This document shows positions 18,655 through 58,787 of a DNA stretch of 64,000 bases, one piece after another. How positions within the stretch are numbered: position 1 is the stretch's first letter; each line of letters opens with the position of its first letter. Made by a program: the position numbers and the translations under genes. The DNA is taken from positions 67,274 through 131,273 of the forward strand of contig CALBDO010000003.1 of the NCBI GenBank assembly GCA_937927515.1, written 5' to 3'. The DNA comes from Candidatus Kapaibacterium sp. Lineage in GTDB: Bacteria; Bacteroidota; Ignavibacteria; Kapaibacteriales; UBA2268. The notes beneath the pieces are model-generated. The model was not told where the DNA came from, did not search any database, and saw only the letters and a list, made by a program, of their open reading frames with translations.

Positions 18655-20508
18655 TTATTCAATGACAAACGATTTCTTGTATCTTCGTAGAATTTTTGTA
18701 GCATCTCTCTTTGCCTCGTCGATATATGAGTAGCCCCACAGAACAACTTTATATTTCAAATTATTGTTTAAATAAAGTCTATCGTAATATGCTCTAAACC
18801 CTTGCCTCTCCCAAAATTCAACTTTCTTCTCAGCAAGTTCCTCACTGGCAACAGTATCCACAACAATTGTAAAAGGTAAAAGCTCGGGCATAATCCAGCG
18901 TATTTCTACTCTTCGATTAAACAAAGACGATATATCATCATTTTCGTCTGTGTAAATAGGTTTACTAATACCTATACCCTTCACTAAAATTTGGTTTGGA
19001 GGCACACCACTGGAAATAAGCCTTGTACGAACTGCATTTGCACGGTCCAAAGACAATTTTAATGGTGAATAATATTGTTCCCTAATTCCAGCAGTTCCAA
19101 TGAGTTCAACTTGCAAATTTCTATGTGCTTTTAGAAGTTGTGCTAAATTGTTTAAGCAAACAGAAAATTCTTCCCCTATTGAAGTATCAGCAAAATTAAA
19201 TAGAGACACAGCTTGATAGTTCGTATAAAAAGTCCTCTCCTTTACAGGATAGGTAAACAAGTCGAAAAACTCCAACTGGTTTGATTGCAAAGTTAATTTA
19301 ATCTCCACATCATTGCACTCTAAAAACTGTCTACTTTTTTCGAAAACAATTGAAAAATAATACTTGTTAGACAGAATACATTCAATAATACCATTTCCCA
19401 CCTCTTGATTTTTCCAAGGAAAGTGGTAGAAATTACCATTTGTTTTGGAAGCTAAATAACGATAGGTCGATGGAGAAACTTCATTCCCTAAAGCAATAAC
19501 GTTAATAGGAGTATGAATTTTTTGGGACTTTTCGATAACATCCTCCAAAGTAAAGTTTATAGAGGAATTGTCCATACGATTAGTAATCAAGACTACTATA
19601 GAGTTGGATTGCGCTTCGATTTCATCCAAAATTAACCAGATGGAACGATATACTGAACTTAATTCATTCCTTATGGGCAAATCTATTGCTTGAAAATCAA
19701 AATAAAATTTATTTGCTCGTTCAAGTGGAATAATGTTTTGAAGTCCGACTCCAAAACAAAACAGAGCAACATTATCTTCAACATCAAGAAACTTAACTGC
19801 GTCGAGAATCTGTTGTTTAAGCTCTAAATCATCTTGGATGACCGAGTAATCAATCAAAAGATATACATTAAGTTTTTCATTAATATTGATATTCTTTGGA
19901 AAATGCTCGAAAGAGTTTCCAATAATTCTTTTTTGACATTTCTGCTCAATTCTAATTTTAAAATCAGAATGGTACTTGCTAAAATCGTAAACCATGTTGC
20001 CAAAATCGTCTAGAACACAAAAAATCAACTCCAAGCTGTCTTTGTTTTCTTGTTGGTTCAAACGGAACACTTTAACTTTAGATACATCCTTCAAAGAACC
20101 TGTTGTAAAGCCAGAGAGGAAGTTCGAGGGTTTAAAATTTTTTTGTTCAAAAATGTTTTCAATAAGACGTGGTCCAGTTTGGACCTTAGTTTTAACTTTC
20201 TGATTATGATTTTCACTGGAGTTAACTAAAACATAAACTGATTGCAAGAGCTGTTTACCATCATTTTTAAATGCAACTATGTCCAATCTAAGAGGCCTAT
20301 CTGGCTTGATGACAATTGAATCAATGGGTTTAAACTTTTCTGTATAACCTCCGACCATTACATAATCAGCATTTTTGAAGTTCCAAAAAACGACTGCACT
20401 ATCGCCGGACTCTAACTCGATTAAATTGGAGATTCTCTCTACTAAAATATTTTTTGTGGAACAAGAAAATAATACAATAACAATTGTTAGAACTAAATAC
20501 TTTCCCAT
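18655..20508 (-). CDS. Lipoprotein with C-terminal OmpA-like and SPOR peptidoglycan-binding domains
   Basis: Lipobox LFSCS. OmpA_C-like LSLDRANAVRTRLISSGV...NRRVEI. Terminal SPOR-like segment (TIVVDTVASEELAEKKVEFWERQGFRAY). Confidence 0.6.
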   Translation of the reverse strand: MGKYLVLTIVIVLFSCSTKNILVERISNLIELESGDSAVVFWNFKNADYVMVGGYTEKFKPIDSIVIKPDRPLRLDIVAFKNDGKQLLQSVYVLVNSSENHNQKVKTKVQTGPRLIENIFEQKNFKPSNFLSGFTTGSLKDVSKVKVFRLNQQENKDSLELIFCVLDDFGNMVYDFSKYHSDFKIRIEQKCQKRIIGNSFEHFPKNININEKLNVYLLIDYSVIQDDLELKQQILDAVKFLDVEDNVALFCFGVGLQNIIPLERANKFYFDFQAIDLPIRNELSSVYRSIWLILDEIEAQSNSIVVLITNRMDNSSINFTLEDVIEKSQKIHTPINVIALGNEVSPSTYRYLASKTNGNFYHFPWKNQEVGNGIIECILSNKYYFSIVFEKSRQFLECNDVEIKLTLQSNQLEFFDLFTYPVKERTFYTNYQAVSLFNFADTSIGEEFSVCLNNLAQLLKAHRNLQVELIGTAGIREQYYSPLKLSLDRANAVRTRLISSGVPPNQILVKGIGISKPIYTDENDDISSLFNRRVEIRWIMPELLPFTIVVDTVASEELAEKKVEFWERQGFRAYYDRLYLNNNLKYKVVLWGYSYIDEAKRDATKILRRYKKSFVIE

Positions 20509-20511
20509 ATT

Positions 20512-21831
20512 CTATAATTTAGTGAAGATTAATTCACCATTATGAGAGTCGATTAGAACCTTGTCACCAGGAGAGAATTTTCCTTCCAAAATTAACAGAG
20601 CAAGCTTATCGGCTATGTGTTTTTGAATTGCTCTTTTTAGTGGTCTTGCACCGAATTGCGGGTCGAAACCGATGTTTGAAATCAAATCTAGCGCTTCTGG
20701 GCTAATTTCGGTCTCTATCCCGCTTTCCTTCAATTTTTTCTTGATTCGTTCGAGTTGTAATTGGGTAATTTTAACAATATCTTCCTTTGTAAGTGGTTTA
20801 AAAAGGATAATATCATCTATTCTATTCAAAAACTCGGGACGCAATCTTTTCTTTAATAAATCAAAAATCTCATCTTTCAGTCTTTCAATGATAATGTCTC
20901 TATTCGATGAATTGAGCATTTCAAGTTTTTCTTGAATAAGCTCGGTACCAAGATTGGATGTCATTATAACAATGGTGTTTTTAAAATTAACAACTCTTCC
21001 CTTACTGTCTGTTAGCCTCCCGTCGTCCAGTACCTGCAAAAGAATATTGAACACATCTGGATGTGCCTTTTCTATCTCATCAAGTAGAACAACAGAATAT
21101 GGTCGACGACGAACTGCCTCGGTCAACTGGCCACCTTCCTCGTACCCAACATAACCAGGAGGAGCTCCCACAAGGCGAGAAACAGAGAACTTTTCCATAT
21201 ATTCGCTCATATCGATTCGCACCATGGCATTTTCATCGTCAAAAAGGAATTCTGCAAGTGCTCTTGCCAGTTCCGTTTTCCCTACCCCAGTGCTGCCTAA
21301 AAAAATGAAGGAGCCAATAGGCCTATTGACGTCCTGTAAACCTACACGAGACCTACGAATGGCATTAGCAACAGATTGAACAGCTTCTTCTTGGTCGACA
21401 AGTCGTTGATGGATTCTTTCTTCCATTTTTAAAAGCTTTGTCCTTTCGCTTTCAAGCATTTTCTGAACTGGTATACCGGTCCATTTAGAAACAACCTCGG
21501 CTATATCCTCTGCGTCTACTTCTTCTTTTAGAAGTTTGCCATCCTTTTGTACCTCTTGCAATTTTTCATTGACTTCGTTCAATTTTTTGTTGAGTTCATG
21601 TATAAGGCCATACCTTATTTCAGCAACTTTGGTTAGATTGCCCTGCCTCTCATACTCATCTGCTTGAAGTCTTAAATTTTCTATTTGCGCTTTATAATCT
21701 CGAATTTGTTGGATTAAATTTTTCTCAAGCTCCCATCTATTACGAAGAGCCTCTCTCTTCTGTTTTAACTCTTCAAGCTCTTGTTCGATTTCATTTAATC
21801 TTTCTTTTGTTGCTTTAATTGACTCATCCAT
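20512..21831 (-). CDS. clpB: ClpB C-terminal half only (middle coiled-coil, NBD2, C-terminal domain). The N-domain and NBD1 (~430 aa) are absent; a gene fragment or split gene.
   Basis: Near-collinear with the C-terminal half of E. coli ClpB (recalled alignment: GSTGVGKTELARALAEFLFD, SRLVGAPPGYVGYEEGG, LLDEIEKAHPDVFNILLQVLDDGRLTD, GARPLKRAIQ). Stop codon 4 codons upstream of the ATG; an AT-rich non-coding region and a terminator lie upstream. Confidence 0.85.
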   Translation of the reverse strand: MDESIKATKERLNEIEQELEELKQKREALRNRWELEKNLIQQIRDYKAQIENLRLQADEYERQGNLTKVAEIRYGLIHELNKKLNEVNEKLQEVQKDGKLLKEEVDAEDIAEVVSKWTGIPVQKMLESERTKLLKMEERIHQRLVDQEEAVQSVANAIRRSRVGLQDVNRPIGSFIFLGSTGVGKTELARALAEFLFDDENAMVRIDMSEYMEKFSVSRLVGAPPGYVGYEEGGQLTEAVRRRPYSVVLLDEIEKAHPDVFNILLQVLDDGRLTDSKGRVVNFKNTIVIMTSNLGTELIQEKLEMLNSSNRDIIIERLKDEIFDLLKKRLRPEFLNRIDDIILFKPLTKEDIVKITQLQLERIKKKLKESGIETEISPEALDLISNIGFDPQFGARPLKRAIQKHIADKLALLILEGKFSPGDKVLIDSHNGELIFTKL

Positions 21832-21949
21832 AGAATTTTTACCATTCGATAATTATTTAAAAGTTAAATTTAATCAAAAAAAACCACATATATTTAATTT
21901 GAAAACATAAATAATGGCATTTAAAATTCGCAGCTAAAACTTAAATTTA

Positions 21950-21990
21950 CATCAAATAAAAAAGAAGAGGAAAGTTCCTCTTCTTTAATC
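21950..21990 (-). terminator. Rho-independent terminator for the lipoprotein gene at 22033-22707
   Basis: Perfect 11-bp stem AAGAAGAGGAA / TTCCTCTTCTT (21962-21986) with a 3-nt loop, followed on the minus strand by TTTTTATTT. Confidence 0.5.
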
Positions 21991-22032
21991 AAACAAAAAC
22001 TTTAAATATTAAAAAATCTAAGGCTTAAAAAG

Positions 22033-32746: not shown

Positions 32747-34657
32747 TTAAACAATAAATTTACCCCGTTTAACGTAATGGGTGTGTAAAAGTTTGTGCGA
32801 AATATGCCCACAAGGACCATCGACTAAGAACTTCTCGTAAATGTATTTGATATGTGGATTTTCGTGAGATTTTCTAATAGGTAATTCTTTGTCTTCATTG
32901 TAAATGGCTTCGGCACGTTTTCTTCTAATTTCTGGACTTGTTGGGATGGGTTGTCCACCTCCACCAATACAACCACCTGGACAAGCCATAATTTCTACAA
33001 AATGGTAATCATCCAACTCTCCATGAATTAATGCTTCCATTACTTTTCTTGCATTCGAGGTTCCGTGGGCAATCATGAACTTAACTTCGAAGCCCTCGAG
33101 AAATCTCCATTCATCTTTAACATCTGTCAAAATAACCGAACCTTGCCTTACCCCATCCATACCACGGCAGGGAGTAATGTCAAGATTCTCAAAAGGTACT
33201 TCCCGCCCAGTAACAATCTCGTAAACTGTTCTTAATGCTGCTTCCATCACGCCTCCGGTAGCACCAAAAATTAAACCAGCACCAGAGGCATTACCAAATG
33301 GCTCATCAAAATAGCTTTTTGGTAGTTCTGGTAAATAAATCCCAGCTTCTTTTATCATTTGAGCAAGTTCTCTTGTTGTTAATCCATAATCGATATCTTT
33401 GTATCCAGAAGCATTCATTTCTGGACGATTGCATTCAAATTTTTTGGCTGTACAAGGCATTACTGCTACAGTTACAATATTTGCTGGGTCGATTTGCATT
33501 TCCTGAGCATAGAATGTCTTAATTATTGCACCAAACATTTGTTGGGGGGATTTGCAAGTGGATAAATAATCTAAGTGTTCTGGATAATAGTGTTCAATGA
33601 ACTTAATCCATCCGGGTGAACAAGAAGTAAATTGTGGCAATTTTACTTCGGGGTCACCAAAAAGGTATTTTCTTTTCAATCTAAGTAAAAGCTCCGTACC
33701 CTCTTCCATTATGGTTAAATCTGCTGCAAAATTAGTGTCGAAAACACGGTCGAAACCAATCATTCTTAGGGCAGTAACCATTTGTCCAGTCATTGAATGC
33801 CCGGGAGGCAATCCAAATTCCTCCCCTATAGCAGCTCGAATTGAGGGTGCAGTTTGAATTACAACATGCTTAGTTGGGTCGTCGATAGCTTTCCATATTT
33901 CATCTGATGGGTCCTTTGCCCTAAGAGCTCCAGTTGGGCAACGATTAATACATTGACCGCAATTAATACAGATGACATCTAATATTGGCTTGTCCATAAA
34001 AGTAGATATTAGTGTAGAATAGCCTCGCCTTGTTGCCTCCAATACCCCAACTTCTTGGAGGTCGATACAAGTACGAACACATCTTTTACAGAGAACGCAT
34101 TTATCCATATCCCGAACTATGGCATAACTTGAGCGGTCTACTTCATAACGTGGTTCTTTTATGTGACCAAATCTGTAGAAATCAACACCATATTCTTTTG
34201 CAAGTCTTTGCAATTCACAATTGTTATTTCTCACGCAAGAATAACATTCACCATAATGTTCGCTTAGCAGCAAGTCTAAGATGTGGCGTCGTGCCTTGCG
34301 AACACGCTCGGATGTTGTCCAGATTTTAATTTTGTTTGTTATAGGATATGCACAGGAGGCCTGCAATGTTCGCATGCCTTCAACTTCAACAACACATACA
34401 CGACATGCACCAGCAAGGCACAAATCCTCGTGATAACATAGCGATGGAATGTGAATATTGTTATTACGACAAGCCTCCAAAATAGTCATTCCAAATGGCA
34501 CCGTATAACCTTTACCATTGATTTCAACATCGATATAAGCTCCGACATCAGCATCTGCTTTGATTTCAACTTTGTGAGGCTTCTGTGCAACTGGTGCCCT
34601 ATTTTGCATTGCATTAATAGCCATTTTTGCCTCGAATTGAGTTCGACATGATTTCAT
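32747..34657 (-). CDS. hydA: [FeFe] hydrogenase catalytic subunit HydA (M3-type: 2Fe-2S, His-ligated 4Fe-4S, two ferredoxin-like 4Fe-4S, H-domain). The start is probably an internal Met (34624 or 34609), which removes the overlap with hydB.
   Basis: L2 MPCTAKKFE and L3 EIMACPGGCIGGGGQP are canonical. L1 reads TSCSPGW (33614-33628) rather than TSCCPxW. N-terminal ferredoxin-like Cys patterns. Confidence 0.9.
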   Translation of the reverse strand: MKSCRTQFEAKMAINAMQNRAPVAQKPHKVEIKADADVGAYIDVEINGKGYTVPFGMTILEACRNNNIHIPSLCYHEDLCLAGACRVCVVEVEGMRTLQASCAYPITNKIKIWTTSERVRKARRHILDLLLSEHYGECYSCVRNNNCELQRLAKEYGVDFYRFGHIKEPRYEVDRSSYAIVRDMDKCVLCKRCVRTCIDLQEVGVLEATRRGYSTLISTFMDKPILDVICINCGQCINRCPTGALRAKDPSDEIWKAIDDPTKHVVIQTAPSIRAAIGEEFGLPPGHSMTGQMVTALRMIGFDRVFDTNFAADLTIMEEGTELLLRLKRKYLFGDPEVKLPQFTSCSPGWIKFIEHYYPEHLDYLSTCKSPQQMFGAIIKTFYAQEMQIDPANIVTVAVMPCTAKKFECNRPEMNASGYKDIDYGLTTRELAQMIKEAGIYLPELPKSYFDEPFGNASGAGLIFGATGGVMEAALRTVYEIVTGREVPFENLDITPCRGMDGVRQGSVILTDVKDEWRFLEGFEVKFMIAHGTSNARKVMEALIHGELDDYHFVEIMACPGGCIGGGGQPIPTSPEIRRKRAEAIYNEDKELPIRKSHENPHIKYIYEKFLVDGPCGHISHKLLHTHYVKRGKFIV

Positions 34658-35807
34658 CTTTGAAATTAGTAACTATTGAAATGAATGGATTTGGAGAGGA
34701 CTGCCCAAGGCCACATTTAGAAGCTATTTGCATAGTCTTTCCCAGTTCTATCAATTCATTTAAATATTTGTGAGAGCATTTACCCTCTTCGAGAAGTTCT
34801 ACTCCTTCGAGAAGTTTTTTGTTTCCAATTCGGCAAGGAGTACATTGTCCACAACTTTCTTCTACAAAAAATTCCATAAAGTTTTTCAATACTTCTAGCA
34901 TATTACGATTTTGGTTGAAGATAATCACAGAACCGCCTGTTGGAATATCTTCGAAAGAAATATTTCTGTCTATTTCGCTCATTGGAACACAAATACCAGA
35001 AGCGCCGCCAATTTGAACAGCCTTTGTATCTTCGGCTCCGACAAGTTCCAAAAGCTCTTTAACTTTTATTCCAAAGGGAACCTCGTATACACCTGGTTTC
35101 TTACAATCCCCAGAAACAGAAATCAATTTCATACCTTTTGATTTCTCGGTACCATACTTTGAAAACCATTGAGCGCCTTTTGAAATAACTATGTATGCAC
35201 AAGCAAATGTCTCTACATTATTTACTATCGTTGGATAGCCAAGATATCCAGTATTAACAGGAAATGGTGGCCGATTTCGTGCTTCCCCTCGGTGACCCTC
35301 CAAAGATTCAATTAGTGCGGTTTCCTCACCACAAACATAAGCCCCAGAACCAAGGCGAATTTCAATGTCGAAGTCAAAATTTGTACCAAGAATGTTTTTA
35401 CCTAAACGCTTTTCTTTTCTCATTCTCTCAAGGTAATCGTTTAAATATTCATAAAGATAAGCATATTCGCCCCGTAGGTAAATAAAACCTTTCTGTGCTT
35501 GAATTGCATATCCACCAATAACAATCCCTTCGAGAACCAATTTAGTATATTCAGAAAGTAGCACACGGTCCTTAAATGTCCCTGGTTCACCTTCGTCAGC
35601 ATTGCAAACAACAAACTTCTTATCGGATTTTGCTGTAAGAGCCAGCATCCATTTAGTCCCAGTAGGAAAACCAGCACCTCCACGACCACGCAATCCAGAC
35701 TCTCTTACTTCCAATACAACTTCTTGCGGGGTCATTTTCAAAGCTTTTTCCAAAGCTTCTCCATGAGCTCTTTCATCAAAAAACACTGTATCATTTATAA
35801 TTGGCAT
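34614..35807 (-). CDS. hydB: NuoF-like NAD(P)H-binding flavoprotein subunit of the hydrogenase (HydB; core-only, no extra ferredoxin domains)
   Basis: GRGGAGFPTGTKW (FMN/NADH site) and the NuoF [4Fe-4S] motif CGQCTPCRIG...C; 397 aa. Confidence 0.85.
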   Translation of the reverse strand: MPIINDTVFFDERAHGEALEKALKMTPQEVVLEVRESGLRGRGGAGFPTGTKWMLALTAKSDKKFVVCNADEGEPGTFKDRVLLSEYTKLVLEGIVIGGYAIQAQKGFIYLRGEYAYLYEYLNDYLERMRKEKRLGKNILGTNFDFDIEIRLGSGAYVCGEETALIESLEGHRGEARNRPPFPVNTGYLGYPTIVNNVETFACAYIVISKGAQWFSKYGTEKSKGMKLISVSGDCKKPGVYEVPFGIKVKELLELVGAEDTKAVQIGGASGICVPMSEIDRNISFEDIPTGGSVIIFNQNRNMLEVLKNFMEFFVEESCGQCTPCRIGNKKLLEGVELLEEGKCSHKYLNELIELGKTMQIASKCGLGQSSPNPFISIVTNFKDEIMSNSIRGKNGY

Positions 35808-35815
35808 AGCTCCTC

Positions 35816-36310
35816 CTACTTCAAATTTTCAATGATTTCAATAACTTTCGATGGCGTAAGTTTTGTGTACACTTGTTCGTTTATTAACATTGCTGGTCCT
35901 TGGTCGCACATACCTATGCAGTGACAATATTCCAAAGTAAATTTCCTATCCGAAGAGGTTTCTCCAAATTTTAAACCCAACTCCCTTTGCAATGTATTTG
36001 CAACAGCATCTTTCCCAGCAAGGTCGCATGATATAGTTTTGCATAATCGAATAATGTACTTTCCCTTCGGTTCAGTACTTAAAAAGCTATAAAATGTTAC
36101 TACTCCATAAACCTCGACAGGATGGATATTCATTTTGTGCGCAATTTCCTGCATGGCAAAGTCGGAAATAAAACCAAACTTTCTTTGAATGTCTTGTAGT
36201 ACTGGTAGTAAGTTCTCTCGACCACTACCATATTTTTCGATTAATTTCTCAACTTCATTGACTATTACGTTATTATCTGGAACAATCATACTTCCCTCAT
36301 TTTTTTCCAA
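35816..36310 (-). CDS. hydC: NuoE-like thioredoxin-fold [2Fe-2S] subunit (HydC)
   Basis: CHCIGMCDQGPAMLIN Cys pattern of NuoE/HoxE; 164 aa. Confidence 0.8.
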   Translation of the reverse strand: MEKNEGSMIVPDNNVIVNEVEKLIEKYGSGRENLLPVLQDIQRKFGFISDFAMQEIAHKMNIHPVEVYGVVTFYSFLSTEPKGKYIIRLCKTISCDLAGKDAVANTLQRELGLKFGETSSDRKFTLEYCHCIGMCDQGPAMLINEQVYTKLTPSKVIEIIENLK

Positions 36311-39980: not shown

Positions 39981-41390
39981 TTAAAGTATATATTTGCTTA
40001 AATCAACATTTTCTATAATCTTGTTTAACTTTTCTTGGACCATTTGAACAGTGACAACAATTTTAGTATCTTTTATTTTGTCTGGTGCGTTGAAAAGAAT
40101 ATCCTCTAAAAGAGTAGTCATAATAGTGTGCAATCGGCGAGCACCAATGTTGGTTATTTCTTCATTAACTCGTGCAGCAATTGCAGCAATTTCTCTAATA
40201 GCTTCGGGGTCGAATTCAAGGTTAATACCTTCGGTATCTAGTAATGCTTTGTATTGTTTTATCAAGGCATTTTCTGGAAGTGTTAGTATTTTCACAAAGT
40301 CGTCTTCTGAAAGGCTCTTCAATTCTACTCGAATTGGGAAACGCCCTTGCAACTCCGGAATTAAATCCGAGGGTTTCGACACATGGAATGCCCCAGATGC
40401 AATAAATAAAATATGGTCAGTTTTTACGGGGCCATACTTTGTATTTACTGTTGTACCTTCCACAATAGGCAGCAAATCTCTTTGAACACCTTCGCGAGAG
40501 ACATCTGGGCCAACGCCTTTACCCTGGCTTGATGCAATTTTATCAATTTCATCGATGAAAATTATTCCCATATTCTCCGCTCTTTCCAATGCTTCTTTAA
40601 CAACGCTCTCCATATCGATTAACTTTTCGGTCTCTTCCTTCAAAATTTGATTTCTTGCCTCGGCAACTGTCATCTTCCTTCTTACTCTTTTTTTAGGAAA
40701 CAATTGACTAACCATATCTTGAATAGAATTACCAATTTCATCCATTCCAAATGGTCCAAAAATTTGTACAGGTGGGGCCATCTCACTCTCTACCTCAATC
40801 TCTATTACTCTTGTGTCGAAAAAACCGGCTTTGTACAATTCCCTTAATTTTTCTCTATTTTCCTCAAGCTCGGTTTCACTTCCCTCGACATCGAAAGAGA
40901 TGCTCTTGGATTTCTTCGGAAATAATATGTTCAAAATTCTCTCTTCTGTTGCTCGTTTTGCCTCCTCCATTTTTTCTTGAGTTTTTTCTTGTTTAACCAT
41001 TACAACTGCACGCTCAACAAGGTCGCGGACCATTGATTCAACATCACGACCAACATAGCCAACCTCGGTATACTTTGTTGCTTCAACCTTGACAAAAGGT
41101 GCATTTACTAATTTTGCAAGCCTTCGAGCAATTTCAGTTTTCCCTACTCCAGTTGGTCCTATCATTATAATATTGTTTGGCAAAATTTCCTCGCGAAGAT
41201 TACTCATTACTTTTCTTCTTCGCCATCTGTTCCTTAATGCTATAGCCACTATTCGTTTCGCTTCCTCTTGTCCGATAACATACTTATCCAACTCTCGAAC
41301 TATATCGCTTGGAGTAAGTTCCCAATCAGAGCGATGAAAAGATTTCTTTTCGATTGTGTGTTCACTTTGCAAATCAATTTTCTCTTTCAT
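39981..41390 (-). CDS. hslU: HslU AAA+ ATPase subunit; no hslV adjacent
   Basis: [52 protein letters not shown]; 469 aa. Confidence 0.9.
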
Positions 41391-50593: not shown

Positions 50594-53500
50594 CTATTTA
50601 TTAATTATCATCTGTCTTGTAAGTCTCTTTCCGCAAAACTCAAGAGTGTAGGCATACACACCACTCGCCAAATTCAACTTTTCGACGTCCACGAGCACAG
50701 AGTGATAGCCAGCAACGACATCTGCGTTTAGTAACTCAATGCTTATATCACCAAGCAAATTGCTAATTGTGACTCGCACTCTCCCATTATTGGGGATGAA
50801 GAAATCAACTTTAGAAATACCGCTAAATGGATTTGGCTTGTTCTGATATAATTCTAAGGAACCCATTTCCCCAGGAACTTCGAGTATAGTTTTGAATGTG
50901 ACTGTAACAACACATTCTTTACTCCAAACCTCACCACACTGGTTGTAAACTTTAACTTTATAGGTTCCAGCATCTTCAGACTTGGCAGAGGTTATTTCAA
51001 ATGTAGGTTCGGTTACATTTAACTCCTGGTCATCTTTGTACCACTGATAATTCAAGTTGTCGCCAGTGGCACCGATTGCGAGGACAATGGGTTGTCCAGT
51101 ATTCACCTGATAAGTTGCTGGCAAATCGTTCACAATTAATGGCTTAGAGAATACTGCAAGAGTTGCTGGTCCAACAGTTTGCTCGTCGAAGCCTTCGATA
51201 GTAATCGTCACTGAGTACAAACCTGCATCCGTCGCATCAATGTTTGATATAGTTAGACTTGAAGTGTTAACGCCTGAATATTTGCCACCTTCTTGCAGAG
51301 CTACACCATTGAACTTCCACTGGTACTTAAGGTCGAAGCCAGGGACTGTCGACGAGGCATTTACAGTAAAGGTAACGTCTTCACCTTCGCAAGCTTGCTG
51401 GTCGGCTAATTGCTGAGCAATTATTCTTGGCTTTTCAACTAATGAGATTGGTTCGGAGGTATCGGCACCACACAACCCCTCGACGATTACATAATAATTC
51501 GAACCAAAATCGGCTGGTCGAATATCTCGTATGGTCATAATTGATGACTTAGTACCTGCTATTCTATCATTATCAACCAATGGTGTAGTTCCACGATACC
51601 ACCTAATCTTTGGCTGCAATAATGGATTATCTTGAGCAGTGAAATGCACATCAATTTCAAAGGTTGCAACCGAGCCAGTTGTTGTGTAAATAACCTTTGG
51701 CTGACGTGTAATTTTTGTTGGTTCGACAGCATACAACAATGTTGGTTGAGTCCAAACTGGTTCGGCTTCGCCGTTTCCAGAAATCTTGCAAGTGTAGACA
51801 CCTCCCATATTGAATGTTAAAGGTGGAAGTGGATAAATTGCCTCGGTTGCTCCGGGTATTTCAACATTATTGAAGTACCATTGATAAGACAATGTACCAC
51901 CAAAATCAATTTCTGCAACAACAGAGAAATAATTATCGGTCGAGCCAACGCAATTGATTACCTCTTTCGGCTGACTTAAAATTCGAATAGAAGGATTCAA
52001 GGTATTGACACCAATGTAATAAGCCTTGTTTCTTTGATTTCCATCAATGTCAAATTTTTCAATTTCGTCCGAAAGCGGACCTAACTCAACTAATGGATAA
52101 GTGTAATATAGTTCTCTTTTAATTTTAGCAATTCTCGGATTGTCATCCGAAAGGAATTCAGCACTCACGGAAACAGAGTTGAAATCTAAGTTAGTAATGG
52201 CTTTCCAGGTCGCTAAGTTTGGTATATTACCAAATATACCAGATACTAATACAGACCCTGCGGTATAGATATTGTTTTCATCACTGATTAGACCAACCGG
52301 AGGCGTACCCCAAACTTGAATAGCATTGCCTGTACCCTTGTTGTAAATCATGTTTCTCTTGAAGTAGTTTCCATTTCCGAGGCTATTCAAATAGATAATT
52401 GGACCGCTAGTATTGCCAACAAAGGAATTGTACACAAACTTGGACATTGTTATTCTATCCAAATAAGAAGCACCAGAGTTCAAGGTTGTTACTATGTTGT
52501 TAGCAACGATTGCCGAGGTGGAAGCCAAACGCATTCCGTAATTGCCACCACTCAATTTAATGTAATTTTTATAAATCTTAGCGTTTTGTGAGTTTTCGGA
52601 GTAAATACCTATAGTGTTCGAATTTGTAATATAGTTCTTATCTATCATTAGATTTTGGGAACCAGAGTTCAATATTACGATTGCACCCTTTTGATAAGAA
52701 CCAGTAGAACTCAATGTAAACTGATTTTCGCTAATGTTTGCAGATGCGAAGTTGTTCACAAATATTCCATTGGTGTTAGTTCCCATTAGGGTATTACCAG
52801 TGATAGTCACAGCATTAATACCATTTGAAACTGAAATTCCAGCCTGGGGATTGTTTATAGCAGTGGTGCTTGCTGGACCAATTCCGCTAATTCTATTCCC
52901 AGAAATTGAATTTCCGCTTACCAGCGGTGATGGAAGATTCTCTTCTTTATCTAAGCCTAGAATTACAAAGTTTCCCGAATTGATATAAATACCGTAGACC
53001 AAATTTAAGCCAGAGATTGTATTGTTATCAATAGTATAATTGGAAACTCCTTCGAGAAATGCTCCATACAAATTTTGTCCAACGAAGATGTTGTTTGTAA
53101 TGTTCAAATTTACAGAGTTAACACCAGTTGGAGTTAATAAGTATATGCCTGTAGAGCCATACCTTAAAGTTGTATTATTAATTTTTAGGTTGTCTAACCT
53201 ACTATTGTCAGAAAGAATTAGGGCAAAATTTAGATTCTTTAGTGGATTTTGGCAACCAATAATGGTACAATTTTCTATCGTCAAGCCATTAATATTACCA
53301 GATAGTTTAATCACATTGCCCCACGTGCAACTATTGTTTCTAATGATTAAATTTCTAAATACGACTCCACCCAAACGGTCGATTCTAAACACATAATTAT
53401 CATTTGGTCCAGAGGGGGTATATTCGATAATTACATCATCGTTTCTTCCGGTGAAAGACTCGAATGTAATTGGAAACTGCCGATAACCAACTGGCTGCAA

Positions 53501-56500
53501 CAAAACACCACCCTGGTAAGTCCCTGGTCTAAGTTTTATTGTAACTGGACCAGCAATACCCCAATAAGCTATATAATTGGTAAACTCGTCAAGTGAATTG
53601 AAATCTGGATTACGACCACCAATTGTGTACGTACCTCCAGCAAGTGCTTTGTAAACAACAACTGTCCTTTCATCATTATCAGGGTTATCGTCTGGATATC
53701 CATTGGGATATTGTGTTGCTGCTTTTATATAGAATGGTAAATTGGCGGTGCCAAAATCATAAGTACCAACGGCTACATCAATTGAGTCCTGAGCAGCAAG
53801 GTATCCATTCCAGTCGTACGAAGTTTGCTGAACACCATTTACCCACCAATTAATTCTAACGTAAGTCAAAGGTTTTGGAGCGTAATTCTTAATTCTCAAC
53901 TTAACTACATTAACACCGGGTTCAATTGGCAGCATTCCATCAGCATTTAAAAATCCAGCATCGTTAAGAATTGGTGCAACTTGTTTTGTAAATGCGTCGT
54001 TGGTTGGGTCTTTATCGGGCAGAGTATTGGCAATTGGGTCAGGTCCTTTGGGGTCGGTCGTCCAAACTTTAATTGTGAAGGGATTCCAAGGTGCTCGTGG
54101 AACAAATAGGAAGTTTGGATGAATGACAACCTCCTCGGTAGCACTAGTATCAAGGTTACCAGTCCAATAGTATGGTGTTTGTTCCACTCCATCAATGGAC
54201 CAACGAATCGTCACACTTGTAAGTCTAAAGAATTTACCAAAGTTCTTCAATACAGCCTTTACTTGTTGCGGTTCATATGAATTGAATTTATCTACTGGAC
54301 TTGTAATATTTACAATTCCAGCATCATTTTGCTTAATATCGCCCTGGAATTTGACCAAAAAAGCTTCTGGCGTACCACTATATGAATACTGATGACCATT
54401 TGTGGTTGCTATTTGGTCAATATCGGTTGAATATGTATAACCACCGATAAATGGATTTCCCTGGCCATCAACTTTTACACAATTATAATAAACATAGTCG
54501 GAGTTGTTACCACCATAATATGTCCCCCATTTTCTTGTTCTTCCATCAGGGGATAACATTGCGAGCCAACCGTCGGGGGTTGTACTTAAGTAAGTTTTAA
54601 ATCCATCTGGAGAGGCTATACCACTTGAGGAATAAGTAATCCCCCCAACATAAACGTTGCCGCTTCCGTCTGCAGCAATTCCATAACCATAATCTGTACT
54701 TGGACCACCATAGTAAGTACCCCACTGGCGGACGCCACTGGTATTAAACTTAACCACATAGGCATCTGGTGTGGTGCTTAAAACTGTTTGGTACGTTCCA
54801 GAGGTAACAATGTAATCAGAAGAATAAGTCATTCCGGTAAAATAAACATTGCCGTTTTGGTCGGCATACAAACTGTAAAGATAATCTGTGCTCGAACCAC
54901 CATAATAAGTGCCCCATTGGCGGACTCCATTAGTATTAAACTTGACAAGAAATGCATCAGGAGTAACCACATACATTGTTTGATGAGCACCAGATGTAGC
55001 TATATTTGTTGAAGAATAAGTAAAACCTCCGATGTATACATTCCCACTACCATCGCAAGCCACAGAAAAACAATAATCGGAACTATTCCCTCCATAATAT
55101 GTACCCCATTGGCGTACGCCATTCGTGTTGAACTTGACTAAGAAAGCATCTGGTGTAGTACTTATAGTTGTTTGGTGTCCATTGGAAGTTGCAATATTAT
55201 CGGTCGAATATGTATAATATCCAGCGAGATAGGAATTACCATTAGCATCAGCAGCACAGGAATAACATATGTCAGTATTGTTCCCACCATAGTAAGTACC
55301 CCACTGGCGAACTCCATATGCATCAAACTTCACAAGGAAGCAATCTGGAGTGGTACTTATGATAGTTTGATGTCCATTACTCGATGCTATCACGTTTGAG
55401 GAATATGTGTAACCACCGAAATAAACATTTCCGTAACTATCTGCTCCAATACCATAACCATAGTCTGAACTACTTCCACCATAATATGTTCCCCACTGGC
55501 GAACCCCATTAGCATTAAATTTAACCAAAAAAGCATCTGGCGTTGTATTCAAAGTGGTTTGGAATGCGCCCGAGGTTGCAATATTATTTGTAGAGTAGGT
55601 ATAACCAGTTATGTACGAGTTACCATTAGCATCGGCGTGAATACCGTAGCCAATTTCAGTGCTACTACCACCATAATAAGTACCCCACAATCTTGTTGGT
55701 GGGTCGATAATCAAGGGTTTAGAAGCATCATAATTTTCTACATAAAATGTTATAACATCATTGGAATTTTTAACGAACTTGCTTGTAACATAATTTGCTG
55801 CAGTTGGTTGTTCACGGGAATTGATGTAAGAGTCAAGATTTGGGATTTGGTAAGCAATAGGAGGTGCTTGCTCGATGGTTCCTAAGGGTGTGGAGACGCG
55901 CAGGGTACCATTATCAGTTATTTCGATAGCAGAAGCACCAGCAAATTTAAAAGCAATTTTACTTGGGTCTGCACCAGGCTTCAAGACAAAATCGTATTGA
56001 AACTTATTTTCCCTATTTCCATAAAGAACGAAATCTATACCGGGATAGACATCCTCCATAAGTATTGTCGCATATCTGCGGACAAAAGTTATACCATCGG
56101 GACAATGTGGAAGATAATAATTATCGTAGTCTGGTTGAATTTCCTTTGGAATAAACACTGGATTTAAATTCGCTCCGAGTAATTGCATATCTACACGATA
56201 TATATCGAAAGTAGCAGAGATATCGCCGAGTGGTTCAGTTCCCTTGTCGATGCCAAAAGGCTTGTCCAATTTCTCGTTCCGGGCATCAATGGATTCGGGT
56301 CTTTGTTTGATAAAGGTAAAGCTAATAGTATTGTTTTTGACGACGATGGTACCAAAATCAACTTGTGCGACGAACTGAACATCTTTATTCACATTTCCGA
56401 ACTGGTCGACAATTTGACCTTTGTTCTCGATAAAGATAATGCTTTTGCGAGCAAGAAATTCACTTGGAGTTGGCGTCGAAAATACTGTTGAGGAAAGAAA

Positions 56501-56554
56501 AGAAATTAAGAAAGCAAACAAAAATAATTTTTTCATAGTGCAACCCCTATACAA
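50594..56554 (-). CDS. Giant secreted surface protein (1986 aa): eight SBBP beta-propeller repeats, parallel beta-helix repeats, Ig-like domains and a T9SS C-terminal sorting domain
   Basis: Signal peptide (start probably MKKLFLF). Eight ~63-aa repeats WGTYYGG..DYGY....GNVY..G.TYS. NNTISG/NNIFVG right-handed beta-helix-like repeats. YQWYKDDQEL Ig-like modules. C-terminal ...LNLASGVYAYTLEF.GKRLTRQMIINK. Confidence 0.75.
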   Translation of the reverse strand: MYRGCTMKKLFLFAFLISFLSSTVFSTPTPSEFLARKSIIFIENKGQIVDQFGNVNKDVQFVAQVDFGTIVVKNNTISFTFIKQRPESIDARNEKLDKPFGIDKGTEPLGDISATFDIYRVDMQLLGANLNPVFIPKEIQPDYDNYYLPHCPDGITFVRRYATILMEDVYPGIDFVLYGNRENKFQYDFVLKPGADPSKIAFKFAGASAIEITDNGTLRVSTPLGTIEQAPPIAYQIPNLDSYINSREQPTAANYVTSKFVKNSNDVITFYVENYDASKPLIIDPPTRLWGTYYGGSSTEIGYGIHADANGNSYITGYTYSTNNIATSGAFQTTLNTTPDAFLVKFNANGVRQWGTYYGGSSSDYGYGIGADSYGNVYFGGYTYSSNVIASSNGHQTIISTTPDCFLVKFDAYGVRQWGTYYGGNNTDICYSCAADANGNSYLAGYYTYSTDNIATSNGHQTTISTTPDAFLVKFNTNGVRQWGTYYGGNSSDYCFSVACDGSGNVYIGGFTYSSTNIATSGAHQTMYVVTPDAFLVKFNTNGVRQWGTYYGGSSTDYLYSLYADQNGNVYFTGMTYSSDYIVTSGTYQTVLSTTPDAYVVKFNTSGVRQWGTYYGGPSTDYGYGIAADGSGNVYVGGITYSSSGIASPDGFKTYLSTTPDGWLAMLSPDGRTRKWGTYYGGNNSDYVYYNCVKVDGQGNPFIGGYTYSTDIDQIATTNGHQYSYSGTPEAFLVKFQGDIKQNDAGIVNITSPVDKFNSYEPQQVKAVLKNFGKFFRLTSVTIRWSIDGVEQTPYYWTGNLDTSATEEVVIHPNFLFVPRAPWNPFTIKVWTTDPKGPDPIANTLPDKDPTNDAFTKQVAPILNDAGFLNADGMLPIEPGVNVVKLRIKNYAPKPLTYVRINWWVNGVQQTSYDWNGYLAAQDSIDVAVGTYDFGTANLPFYIKAATQYPNGYPDDNPDNDERTVVVYKALAGGTYTIGGRNPDFNSLDEFTNYIAYWGIAGPVTIKLRPGTYQGGVLLQPVGYRQFPITFESFTGRNDDVIIEYTPSGPNDNYVFRIDRLGGVVFRNLIIRNNSCTWGNVIKLSGNINGLTIENCTIIGCQNPLKNLNFALILSDNSRLDNLKINNTTLRYGSTGIYLLTPTGVNSVNLNITNNIFVGQNLYGAFLEGVSNYTIDNNTISGLNLVYGIYINSGNFVILGLDKEENLPSPLVSGNSISGNRISGIGPASTTAINNPQAGISVSNGINAVTITGNTLMGTNTNGIFVNNFASANISENQFTLSSTGSYQKGAIVILNSGSQNLMIDKNYITNSNTIGIYSENSQNAKIYKNYIKLSGGNYGMRLASTSAIVANNIVTTLNSGASYLDRITMSKFVYNSFVGNTSGPIIYLNSLGNGNYFKRNMIYNKGTGNAIQVWGTPPVGLISDENNIYTAGSVLVSGIFGNIPNLATWKAITNLDFNSVSVSAEFLSDDNPRIAKIKRELYYTYPLVELGPLSDEIEKFDIDGNQRNKAYYIGVNTLNPSIRILSQPKEVINCVGSTDNYFSVVAEIDFGGTLSYQWYFNNVEIPGATEAIYPLPPLTFNMGGVYTCKISGNGEAEPVWTQPTLLYAVEPTKITRQPKVIYTTTGSVATFEIDVHFTAQDNPLLQPKIRWYRGTTPLVDNDRIAGTKSSIMTIRDIRPADFGSNYYVIVEGLCGADTSEPISLVEKPRIIAQQLADQQACEGEDVTFTVNASSTVPGFDLKYQWKFNGVALQEGGKYSGVNTSSLTISNIDATDAGLYSVTITIEGFDEQTVGPATLAVFSKPLIVNDLPATYQVNTGQPIVLAIGATGDNLNYQWYKDDQELNVTEPTFEITSAKSEDAGTYKVKVYNQCGEVWSKECVVTVTFKTILEVPGEMGSLELYQNKPNPFSGISKVDFFIPNNGRVRVTISNLLGDISIELLNADVVAGYHSVLVDVEKLNLASGVYAYTLEFCGKRLTRQMIINK
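54170..55690 (-). repeat. Intragenic tandem DNA repeats (period ~190 nt, about 8 copies) encoding the SBBP propeller blades
   Basis: Recurring ccaccata(a/g)ta(a/t)gtaccccactggcg(g/a)ac...aaacttaac units seen near 54706, 54897, 55094, 55284 and 55474. Boundaries are approximate and derived from the protein repeat span. Confidence 0.5.
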
Positions 56555-56645
56555 TTATAAAACATACAACTTTTTTTCATTAAATATAAAAAAGCAAGTA
56601 GTAAATTAATAAAAATTTTTTAAAAAATCAAATATAAATTTTTTT

Positions 56646-58787
56646 TCATTTGACTGGCGTTTCTATAATAATATGCACAGTTCGGCAATAACTCCTCCCT
56701 TGCGGCAGCGAGTTGTCATATAGCAAAATTTCATTCCCAACTGGATTTAGTACAACTTGTGAGTCGGGCAGTTGTAGGAAATTTTTCACTGCAAGACACC
56801 TTCGTAAAGCTAAATCTTTGTTGTACGATACTTCTCCAATTTTATCGGTAAAACCAGAAATGGTAACTTTCGAATTTGGTGCTATTTTGCTTTTTATCTG
56901 GTTTAGAATTGGGATGTGTTGTGGCAGTAAATCTGCTTTGTCGAAGTCAAATACAATCAGAGAAAAGCGTTCGATTTTTTTATCGCCAAGCAATTCCTCT
57001 CTTTTTCTCTTTATTGTCCTTTGTTCGATTTTTACACTAACCTTTGATATACTTCGCTGGTCTAAAATATCCTCGGCGATAAAATTTATCAAGATTGGCT
57101 CTTCTAACTTTGGAATAGGTTCCTCTTCAACGCTCCAAAGTATTTTCTCAGGTAAATCGATTCCAGAGTAAGTCCGCAAATTTGTCCCGCTCTGTTCGAT
57201 TGTCAAGTTCCATCCTTTTAAACTTGCATCAGAATGAATTTCTGGTAAAATCTCGACGAAGGGTGGATTGGCGACTTTCTCAATCTTTGAAAGTCTTACA
57301 GGACCAGTAATTTTGCCACTCTTTGAAAAAATCTCTACTCTTTGATTTTCTTCAATACCTTCTGGAATAGATGGATTTGTCATTTTTTCCGGAAGATTTC
57401 TAAACTTAACATCAATTCGTTCGGGCTCTATACCCCAGGTCTCAACAAGATATTCCTTCACAGCTAAGGCACGTTTTTGAGACAATTCAAGATTATTCAA
57501 TTCAACGCCAATGTTGCTATTGCAACCAGTAAGGACAATCGATTCTTTGGGATTTTGCTTAAGCCTCTTAGCAATAATATTAAGCAGGTTCTCATATATT
57601 TTCAATGTATTCCACGGAAGGAAGCTTTCGTCGAATCCATCTGTTGTAGACTTATCAATTAAATTGACCGATGAGCTTTCCAAGCTCCATTCTCCAGTTG
57701 GAAAATAAATGTATGGTAAAAGAGGGAACATCTCTTCAGTTTCAAACTCTTCGATTACCAATACTGGATTATTTTGAACTTCTCCTTGTTTTGACTTTCC
57801 AACGACCTTGAGTTTGGTCTCCAATTGTGAAATCTTTGGGACCTCTGTTCGATATTTTTCACGTACGAAAGTTTTGTATATATACCCGTCAGATACTTTT
57901 TCTTTAATCGTTTTTTCGAGAACAGTTTCCTCAAGATAAGTTCGTTCGGATTTTAACCCAAAAACGGCTATTCGTAATGTATCACGAACGAGCATCGTAT
58001 CATAATAATAATGAACTTCGGGGGGGGAATATATTGGAAATCTAGCAGAAATTCCAATATCTAAATGCGATATTTTCCAATTTTCATTAGTAAGATTTTG
58101 AAATGGAATGAGGAAGCGTAATTGTGGTGAAATCCAAGCAGCATCGAAAAGTTGTATATCATAAGACAAACCCAAACTTGGGCGGACTAAAAATTTTTTA
58201 ACATTAGGTATTTCCAAGTTCAGATTAACGTTTCGTTCTTTCTCCCCATTAACAAATACAACACTATTCGGTGAAATTATAACTTCCTTTTGGTCTACCT
58301 TGGTCAAAAATAAATTTGAAAAATTTAGTCCGAAAGTCAGCCACAATCTACCAAAGATTTTATACATTAAAACAGGTTCAACGTATAAACCAATTAACTT
58401 GGGAGCTAAAAAATGCTGGACAGTAACCGGTAAAAGCACTATTTGGCTAACATCTTCCTCATATTTTACTGGTGTATTGCCGATAAACTCATTTTCTTTA
58501 AAAGTTACCCCCTCAGAGTTTAATCCACCAATTAATCGCAAAGCAAACTTCTCGGAAAGTTCCTTTTGAGCTAACAAAGAAATGTTCCAACCCAAGCCAA
58601 GAGTATTAGTATAGCGGGGACAACAGTTTGGTATATTTTGCAACTTGTTAAAATCCGCAAAGTGAATATTAAACCCTAAATCAACTTCACCACCGATATA
58701 AAATATAGGCTTTTTGATTTCATTAGAATAAATGGCAACTTCTGGTAAAAACATTAACAACAATAAAAAACAAATATTTCTCATCAT
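56646..58787 (-). CDS. Outer-membrane protein with an N-terminal beta-barrel-like region and two OmpA-like peptidoglycan-binding domains
   Basis: Signal peptide and beta-rich N-terminal half. Two OmpA_C-like segments (LSQKRALAVKEYLVE...NQRVEI and NKDLALRRCLAVKNFL). Overlaps the upstream giant gene by 4 nt (ATGA). Confidence 0.6.
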   Translation of the reverse strand: MMRNICFLLLLMFLPEVAIYSNEIKKPIFYIGGEVDLGFNIHFADFNKLQNIPNCCPRYTNTLGLGWNISLLAQKELSEKFALRLIGGLNSEGVTFKENEFIGNTPVKYEEDVSQIVLLPVTVQHFLAPKLIGLYVEPVLMYKIFGRLWLTFGLNFSNLFLTKVDQKEVIISPNSVVFVNGEKERNVNLNLEIPNVKKFLVRPSLGLSYDIQLFDAAWISPQLRFLIPFQNLTNENWKISHLDIGISARFPIYSPPEVHYYYDTMLVRDTLRIAVFGLKSERTYLEETVLEKTIKEKVSDGYIYKTFVREKYRTEVPKISQLETKLKVVGKSKQGEVQNNPVLVIEEFETEEMFPLLPYIYFPTGEWSLESSSVNLIDKSTTDGFDESFLPWNTLKIYENLLNIIAKRLKQNPKESIVLTGCNSNIGVELNNLELSQKRALAVKEYLVETWGIEPERIDVKFRNLPEKMTNPSIPEGIEENQRVEIFSKSGKITGPVRLSKIEKVANPPFVEILPEIHSDASLKGWNLTIEQSGTNLRTYSGIDLPEKILWSVEEEPIPKLEEPILINFIAEDILDQRSISKVSVKIEQRTIKRKREELLGDKKIERFSLIVFDFDKADLLPQHIPILNQIKSKIAPNSKVTISGFTDKIGEVSYNKDLALRRCLAVKNFLQLPDSQVVLNPVGNEILLYDNSLPQGRSYCRTVHIIIETPVK

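Follow-up and report, generated by a model that had tools for sequence, protein, structure and literature searches.

ClpB is canonically a single chain of about 860 amino acids (aa). Within its M-domain, motif 1 is the antiparallel coiled coil of helix L1 with the N-terminal half of helix L2, and motif 2, made up of the C-terminal half of L2 together with L3, is the surface of DnaK binding and repression, which includes Y503. The position and movement of the M-domain set repression or activation of ClpB/Hsp104 by Hsp70, and the lack of a ClpP-docking IGF/IGL loop sets ClpB apart from ClpA, ClpC and ClpX. The subject of this analysis is clpB-C, a half-length clpB gene on the reverse strand of a 64,000-nucleotide stretch of DNA (hereafter the window) from Candidatus Kapaibacterium sp. 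(assembly GCA_937927515.1, contig CALBDO010000003.1, positions 67,274 to 131,273). It is probably the C-terminal subunit of a natural, anciently split, two-gene ClpB that is reassembled through an M-domain zipper.

Several systems that resemble this arrangement in part have been described. The nucleotide-binding halves of Thermus thermophilus ClpB have been engineered as separate polypeptides (Beinker, Schlee, Auvula & Reinstein 2005, JBC 280:37965). Human CLPB (Skd3) is presented as a working disaggregase with a single AAA+ domain of the type of the second nucleotide-binding domain (NBD2) and a C-terminal domain (PMC7343390, PMC9934407), and N-terminally truncated ClpB isoforms (ClpB-80, e.g. 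of M. tuberculosis) are reported to co-exist with other ClpB chains (PMC6168691). In a full-text literature search no report of a split ClpB or Hsp100 was found, and a two-gene ClpB is apparently undescribed so far.

The C-terminal-half gene and its conservation

The gene, its predicted parts and the DNA upstream of it are located in the window as follows.

20512..21831, reverse strand: clpB-C, the putative C-terminal-half subunit of a split ClpB, 439 aa, with M-domain helices L2-L4, NBD2 and the C-terminal small domain.
21646..21822, reverse strand: M-domain helix L2, residues 4-62, a single 59-residue helix in the secondary structure predicted by AlphaFold2 (AF2).
21547..21636, reverse strand: M-domain helices L3/L4, the motif-2 side, residues 66-95 by AF2, with the RYG equivalent of E. 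coli Y503.
20809..21324, reverse strand: NBD2 AAA+ large subdomain, Pfam AAA_2 residues 170-341, with Walker A at 21274-21297.
20554..20793, reverse strand: NBD2 small subdomain or C-terminal domain, Pfam ClpB_D2-small residues 347-426, with the sensor 2 motif GARPLKR.
21832..22032, reverse strand: intergenic region, 201 bp and AT-rich, with the terminator hairpin of the upstream gene at 21986..21961, then a leader of about 130 bp.

The clpB-C open reading frame (ORF) runs from an ATG without a frameshift or internal stop, and its product is collinear end to end with residues 430-850 of E. coli ClpB (PDB 4D2Q, E 2e-144) and with residues 428-846 of T. thermophilus ClpB (1QVR). The intact frame and the collinear match through NBD2 to the C-terminal domain are as an earlier reading of the letters (the sequence-only reading) had described them; its placement of the start inside the M-domain coiled coil also holds, but the break falls at about residue 430 by these structure alignments and not at residue 440. 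The identity to E. coli ClpB residues 430-841 is 55% by tblastn, an alignment confirmed against the solved structures. The Pfam match to AAA_2 has an E value of 4e-70. The NCBIfam equivalog model for ClpB (TIGR03346) is matched at positions 427-852 of 853 with 638.7 bits against a cut-off of 1232.1, about half and so below the equivalog threshold; clpB-C scores higher with the ClpB model than with those for ClpK, ClpG, ClpV and ClpA.

All of the NBD2 motifs are intact: Walker A (GSTGVGKT, residue 179), the GYVGY pore loop (226), Walker B (248), sensor 1 (291), the Arg finger (332) and sensor 2 (394). In L3, AEIRYG aligns with SELQYG of E. coli ClpB, and residues V69, A70, E71, R73 and Y74 are invariant across the C-half family. 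Pfam found no Clp_N, AAA_lid_9 or first nucleotide-binding domain (NBD1) on the clpB-C chain; L2-L4 of the M-domain are present (helices 4-62 and 66-95) and L1 is absent. Nor did Pfam find an ankyrin domain, about 95 residues of M-domain coiled coil being present instead, and the segment aligned to E. coli ClpB 722-748 (GTELIQEKLEMLNSSNRDIIIERLKDEIF) contains no [ILV]G[FL] ClpP-docking tripeptide. No intein, frameshift or programmed read-through signal was found at clpB-C, where the upstream frames are closed and ClpB sequence follows the initiating Met at once. Judged by its sequence, clpB-C is ClpB and nothing else.

Upstream, the sequence-only reading had reported some 200 bp of AT-rich DNA with the terminator of the preceding gene, as listed above, and an in-frame stop 4 codons before the ATG, whereas the nearest one lies 7 codons 5' of it. 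The start codon stands a few residues before TKKRLxEIExEL, at the tip of motif 1, and the DNA upstream of it is non-coding.

The short form is a family. Among the best 120 matches listed from a search of 5.8 billion protein clusters, all are 413-456 aa in length and 66-100% identical to clpB-C, with N-termini 3-12 residues ahead of the shared motif TKKRLEEIEKEL; they derive from metagenome-assembled genomes (MAGs) of Kapabacteria, Ignavibacteria and other members of the FCB (Fibrobacteres-Chlorobi-Bacteroidetes) group. When one genome per GTDB species was scanned with an alignment of the first 66 residues of the family, about 39 species-level short-form loci were found, in MAGs named Kapaibacteri- or Ignavibacteri- or assigned to Bacteroidota and Chlorobiota, and also in the complete chromosome CP058732.1. 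In 37 of these the available upstream sequence is 1.3 kb or longer and contains no NBD1, and the ClpBs of other phyla in the scan are ordinary full-length genes. A search of 50% representatives returned fragments and full-length ClpBs with about 50-59% identity, by which clpB-C appears to have no close unsplit relative. Metagenome contigs scanned with the whole C-half yielded only ordinary full-length ClpBs, the scan being dominated by the universal pattern DMSEYMEK.

Between clpB-C and its nearest relative (L092), dN is 0.016 and dS is 0.44 (non-synonymous and synonymous substitutions per site, respectively). Across 11 genes of the clade of the window, pN is 0.12 and pS is 0.79 (the corresponding proportions of differences), the synonymous sites being saturated. 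The gene is under strong purifying selection. These values bear on the suggestion of the sequence-only reading that the break might be a recent deletion, such that the 5' half of clpB was removed and the remaining ORF is decaying. The sole observation in favour of a pseudogene is the absence of an N-half from the window. Against it, a half-size gene with the same start and identical ORF boundaries is shared by over 120 clusters, some as little as 66% identical, and by about 39 species genomes, dN/dS is about 0.04-0.14, synonymous sites are saturated at a pN of 0.12, and every catalytic motif is intact. In addition, the ortholog in Candidatus Thermonerobacter thiotrophicus appears in the table of metatranscriptome expression clusters published for that organism (PMC6338057). 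A recent deletion or decay is thereby refuted.

An assembly or binning chimera, in which unrelated DNA had been joined just upstream of residue 430, was another suggestion of the sequence-only reading. In its favour, one ENA contig on which the same sequence was assembled independently (L001; ERZ6863697, 23,761 bp) breaks 51 nt upstream of the clpB-C ATG, inside the AT-rich leader, a break that may be an effect of low complexity or coverage. However, a Logan contig, NCBI MAG contigs of 583-790 kb, a JGI contig (P0014) and the complete chromosome CP058732.1 all carry this junction together with its upstream gene, terminator and leader, so that ENA, Logan, JGI and NCBI assemblies made independently agree on it. 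P0014 has the same synteny as the window but is from another JGI sample than the Thermonerobacter gene and is not that gene. The comparison of gene order with relatives that the sequence-only reading had suggested likewise gave the short form, the same upstream gene and leader, and no NBD1 upstream. The gene order of Thermonerobacter scaffold 58, as listed in Table S1 of PMC6338057 (11 FeoA, 12 FeoB, 13 metal regulator, 17 cytochrome c, 18 OmpA lipoprotein, 19 "AAA domain (Cdc48 subfamily)", 20 hypothetical, 21 proline dehydrogenase), is exactly that of the window, with a tRNA-Thr accounting for one number, a synteny of 11 genes across the clpB-C junction. A chimera is refuted by these independent assemblies.

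An AF2 model of clpB-C built on 61 family members (predicted local distance difference test score, pLDDT, 82) consists of a 59-residue helix (4-62), a 30-residue helix (66-95), a short linker of low confidence and NBD2, which superposes on crystal structures of T. thermophilus ClpB NBD2 with template modelling (TM) scores of 0.88-0.94. Since the second helix has only 30 residues, the first 30 or so residues of L2 would have no partner within the chain. The nearly invariant residues of L2 are spaced by 3-4 positions (L12, I15, L22, L29, W33, E36, I40, I43, K47, I50), and dN/dS is about 0.07-0.14 over codons 2-45, its N-terminal part.

The N-terminal-half gene of a sister clade and the proposed two-chain ClpB

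The missing part of ClpB is present as a separate gene in a sister clade. In the Ignavibacteria MAG SKW24 (L126), a 438-aa N-half ORF precedes a 443-aa C-half by 5.7 kb on the same strand, the latter being 64% identical to clpB-C of the window. The N-half aligns to E. coli ClpB 1-429, thus comprising the N-domain, NBD1 and the first M-domain helix (L1); the Walker A and B motifs, pore loop and arginine fingers of its NBD1 are all intact, and it ends with ...LEIEREALKREIKE (in fuller form, ...KQLEIEREALKREIKE) and a stop codon. The best 120 clusters matched by this N-half are all 418-442 aa long and 76-87% identical to it, with Clp_N, AAA and AAA_lid_9 domains, and the tails inspected (about 20 of the 120 clusters, plus L126 and L172) all end right after L1. 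The termini of the N-halves and C-halves are exactly complementary to the unsplit Bacteroidia ClpB (...LEIEREAIKRENDQDKLAQLGKEI...), with zero overlap and zero duplication. With the C-half of SKW24 as the query, the best 120 clusters were again short forms.

A second Ignavibacteria locus, on a 1.6-Mb contig of GCA_017303675.1 (L172), has the N-half and then the C-half in the same order and orientation, 7.6 kb apart. At both loci the interval is occupied by a block of genes on the opposite strand, for a histidine kinase, glycosyltransferase, epimerase, methyltransferase and membrane protein. The longest contigs of 26 pairs of N-half and C-half clusters are identical in size, up to 1.6 Mb, and therefore the halves share contigs. 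Of the 39 N-half clusters with a longest contig of 20 kb or more, 23 are among these pairs. A size match that would have placed adjacent halves on a 3,092-bp contig proved coincidental on inspection and was rejected. Demonstrably, clpB is a two-gene locus in this Ignavibacteria clade, within which the N-halves are 80% and the C-halves 82% identical, indicating similar rates of divergence. In viral contigs, the search for N-halves returned only ordinary ClpB/ClpC genes, such as one of 887 aa (L175). Public annotations label the halves "AAA family ATPase" or "Clp protease N-terminal domain-containing protein".

Two further observations concern these loci and the position of the break. The clpB-N/insert/clpB-C region of the Ignavibacteria sits within the S10 ribosomal-protein cluster: in GCA_017303675.1, S10-L3-L4-L23 precede the N-half by about 7 kb, and in SKW24, L2-S19-L22-S3 come directly after the C-half. 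Separately, a 599-aa ClpB variant of proteobacterial appearance (P0144) lacks NBD1, and its N-domain runs directly into the M-domain at the same motif-1 tip (...QREAMKKETDDASKKRL...). Its junction falls between two similar short peptides (QALKK and QALMKE in E. coli), pointing to a deletion between repeats or to an artefact.

The natural split that the sequence-only reading had listed among its options is thus supported by an N-half family and by shared contigs in the sister clade, while for the genome of the window the N-half is expected on indirect grounds. On this reading clpB was cut at the loop that forms the motif-1 tip of the M-domain, near E. coli residue 430, leaving one gene for the N-domain, NBD1 and L1 (about 438 aa) and another for L2-L4, NBD2 and the C-terminal domain (about 440 aa). 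Insertion of foreign genes into clpB is the most likely origin of the split, because one clade keeps the halves in order and on one strand with a block of 5-7 genes between them; in the clade of the window the halves would later have drifted apart, putting the N-half outside the 64 kb analysed. The two chains are proposed to pair 1:1, with L1 zipping antiparallel onto the exposed N-terminal 30 or so residues of L2 and so rebuilding motif 1, while the NBD1-NBD2 interface would form alongside this L1/L2 zipper. Six such pairs could then build the usual two-tier hexamer, which would thread aggregated proteins under the control of DnaK through motif 2, located in the C-half. A cut within the M-domain would in this way add a tether resembling a leucine zipper. 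The sequence-only reading stated that an NBD2-only ClpB cannot form the canonical disaggregase; this holds for one polypeptide by itself, but the machine is probably rebuilt from two.

The persistence of the split suggests, from the sequences, that motif 1 can form from two chains and that covalent linkage of NBD1 to NBD2 is dispensable in nature, not just in vitro. The split-ClpB lineage has kept its M-domain cut for a very long time and in hundreds of species, hot-spring and deep-aquifer thermophiles included, so that it offers a natural test system for communication between the rings and for repression by the M-domain. The Ignavibacteria clade, where N-half, inserted block and C-half still follow one another on a single strand, may represent gene fission caught in the act. 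Annotation pipelines will score such genomes as lacking ClpB or will flag the halves as fragments.

A probable N-terminal half in the clade of the window

Several observations weigh against a two-chain ClpB in the organism from which the window derives. Searches of the 64 kb by tblastn with E. coli ClpB 1-429 and with the N-half of SKW24 found no N-domain or NBD1, the sole other match being an HslU-like gene; the sequence-only reading, which had seen no remnant of these domains nearby, was accurate in this respect. In the window, which extends 20 kb from clpB-C in one direction and 42 kb in the other, no N-half is present, nor is there one within 10 kb on either side of the C-half in 10 relatives of the clade, and no N-half sequence of this clade is among the best 120 N-half matches listed. 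As for Thermonerobacter, the candidate N-half in Table S1 is recognized by product and COG names only. It belongs to a different expression cluster from that of the C-half ortholog, which, if real, is not as tight co-regulation predicts. Finally, the engineered precedent in T. thermophilus, as described by its authors, was cut after the M-domain (NBD2 construct 520-854) and not inside it, whereas the natural cut is within the M-domain at the motif-1 tip and is held by selection in hundreds of lineages.

The absence from the best 120 matches can be accounted for, since the two halves diverge at similar rates and an N-half of this clade would be expected to be about 63-65% identical to that of SKW24; it would rank below the matches listed because these are filled by the heavily sampled clade of SKW24. 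That such a gene exists is favoured because the stretch of L2 that would pair with L1 is of full length, its seam is nearly invariant, and it is under purifying selection. On these grounds, and in view of the Thermonerobacter candidate described next, the clade of the window probably retains an N-half.

A candidate for it in Thermonerobacter is the gene listed in Table S1 on scaffold 4 as "ATPase family ... (AAA)" (Pfam PF00004, COG0542, JGI24185J35167_100000468), this being the naming expected of a half-length NBD1 protein. A third gene of this genome, which carries the full COG0542 name, is probably for a ClpC-type protein. The Table S1 genes named here belong to the expression clusters of that paper and therefore had transcripts detected. 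The candidate is placed in Cluster A, with a "double peak" at 09:00/18:00, together with GrpE, DnaJ, HtpG, GroES, Lon, ClpX and FtsH, and the C-half ortholog is placed in Cluster B, described as "random" (PMC6338057).

Regulation of clpB-C in the clade of the window also appears to be its own. An alignment of 10 upstream regions from the clade shows a common TAnnTTTG-like box in the leader, which we take to be a Bacteroidetes-type -7 element and which is probably the promoter of clpB-C. The upstream terminator and this promoter-like box together predict that the gene begins a transcription unit of its own.

These observations could also be read as signs of a stand-alone NBD2-only AAA+ chaperone, the N-half having been lost in the clade of the window, so that clpB-C would act as a single-ring unfoldase like Skd3, with L2 free for self-association or for a new partner. 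The absence of an N-half within 20-42 kb in the window and within 10 kb in the 10 relatives, the terminator-bounded unit with a promoter-like box, and the difference in expression clusters are all consistent with this, as is the match of human CLPB NBD structures to clpB-C (E 1e-59 to 1e-60), machines with a single NBD2 being known (PMC7343390). On the other hand, the part of L2 that is meaningful only as a partner of L1 has not been shortened, its heptad seam is nearly invariant and its dN/dS is about 0.1; both halves are demonstrably present in the sister clade; and Thermonerobacter, according to Table S1, has a second COG0542 gene of the half type. A stand-alone chaperone is accordingly quite unlikely.

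A variant of the two-chain ClpB is suggested by the combination of a C-half promoter and a diel expression pattern unlike that of the candidate N-half. The halves may be separately regulated modules, with the C-half forming, at times or (in the clade of the window) always, a ring of NBD2 alone whose coiled-coil arm is free, and with the full disaggregase assembled on demand when the N-half is induced in the manner of a heat-shock gene. This is unlikely, though it deserves mention, for it would mean that disaggregase activity is set by the supply of a subunit.

Neighbouring genes and comparison with known systems

The gene downstream of clpB-C is a conserved neighbour in part of the family.

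18655..20508, reverse strand: 617-aa OmpA-domain lipoprotein gene (ORF and Pfam OmpA), starting 3 nt past the clpB-C stop codon.

Its product has a lipobox-like N-terminus (LFSC), and a counterpart of 617 aa at another locus (L173) has faint VWA_3 and weak SPOR matches in Pfam. The two genes are probably co-transcribed, and they are paired in L001, L006, L007 and L173 as well as in a clade with 69-70% identity (L003-5 and L090); the pairing is absent from L088, L126 and L172. The lipoprotein gene is thus a conserved neighbour whose functional link to clpB-C is only a candidate. An envelope-related role of clpB-C with this OmpA/VWA/SPOR lipoprotein, independent of disaggregation, would fit the tight gene pair kept in two clades that are 69-70% identical. 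It is very improbable, however, given that neither a signal peptide nor a membrane segment is present in clpB-C and the lipoprotein lies on the other side of the membrane, that the pairing is absent from the loci just named, and that clpB-C is still 55% identical to a housekeeping ClpB.

A reprolysin-type protease gene immediately precedes the N-half in SKW24 and GCA_017303675.1 and, in the window, stands two genes ahead of the C-half; it was considered as conserved synteny and rejected, as identities of 31-37% are too weak. The HslU-like AAA+ gene of the window (AAA_2; 39981-41390, reverse strand) has no adjacent hslV, and a search of the 64 kb with E. coli HslV found nothing, which makes it a further AAA+ ATPase of the window without its customary partner beside it. 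Elsewhere in the window, three genes on the reverse strand (32747-36310) form a HydABC-type [FeFe]-hydrogenase cluster, with a Fe_hyd_lg_C/SSU protein, a Nuo51-like flavoprotein and a thioredoxin-like 2Fe-2S protein, as is typical of electron-bifurcating hydrogenases. Three consecutive large genes for surface proteins are located at 50594-63817, also on the reverse strand: the first product (1986 aa) has DUF7948, SBBP beta-propeller repeats, a beta-helix and Ig domains, the second (713 aa) has an OmpA domain, and the third (1677 aa) has Ig domains of the ASH/HYDIN type.

Of the systems compared, Skd3 shares with clpB-C a single NBD2-type module. It has an ankyrin-repeat N-terminus and no M-domain, whereas clpB-C keeps three M-domain helices and has no ankyrin repeats, and clpB-C is far closer to bacterial ClpB (E 1e-144) than to the human CLPB chains (E 1e-60). 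The ClpB-80 isoforms lack only the N-domain and start internally in the same gene, unlike clpB-C, which is without NBD1 as well and is a gene of its own. Other natural fissions have been reported for the beta' subunit of cyanobacterial RNA polymerase (10.1101/2024.01.11.575193) and for reverse gyrase (PMC2504306), in which two polypeptides reassemble, although these are different protein families from ClpB. It is the canonical ClpB of E. coli and T. thermophilus that clpB-C resembles most closely, in its 55% identity, L2-L4 with the Y503 equivalent, NBD2 motifs, C-terminal domain and lack of an IGF/IGL ClpP-binding tripeptide. The split form differs from it in putting the N-domain, NBD1 and L1 on a separate gene product, so that motif 1 would form between chains.

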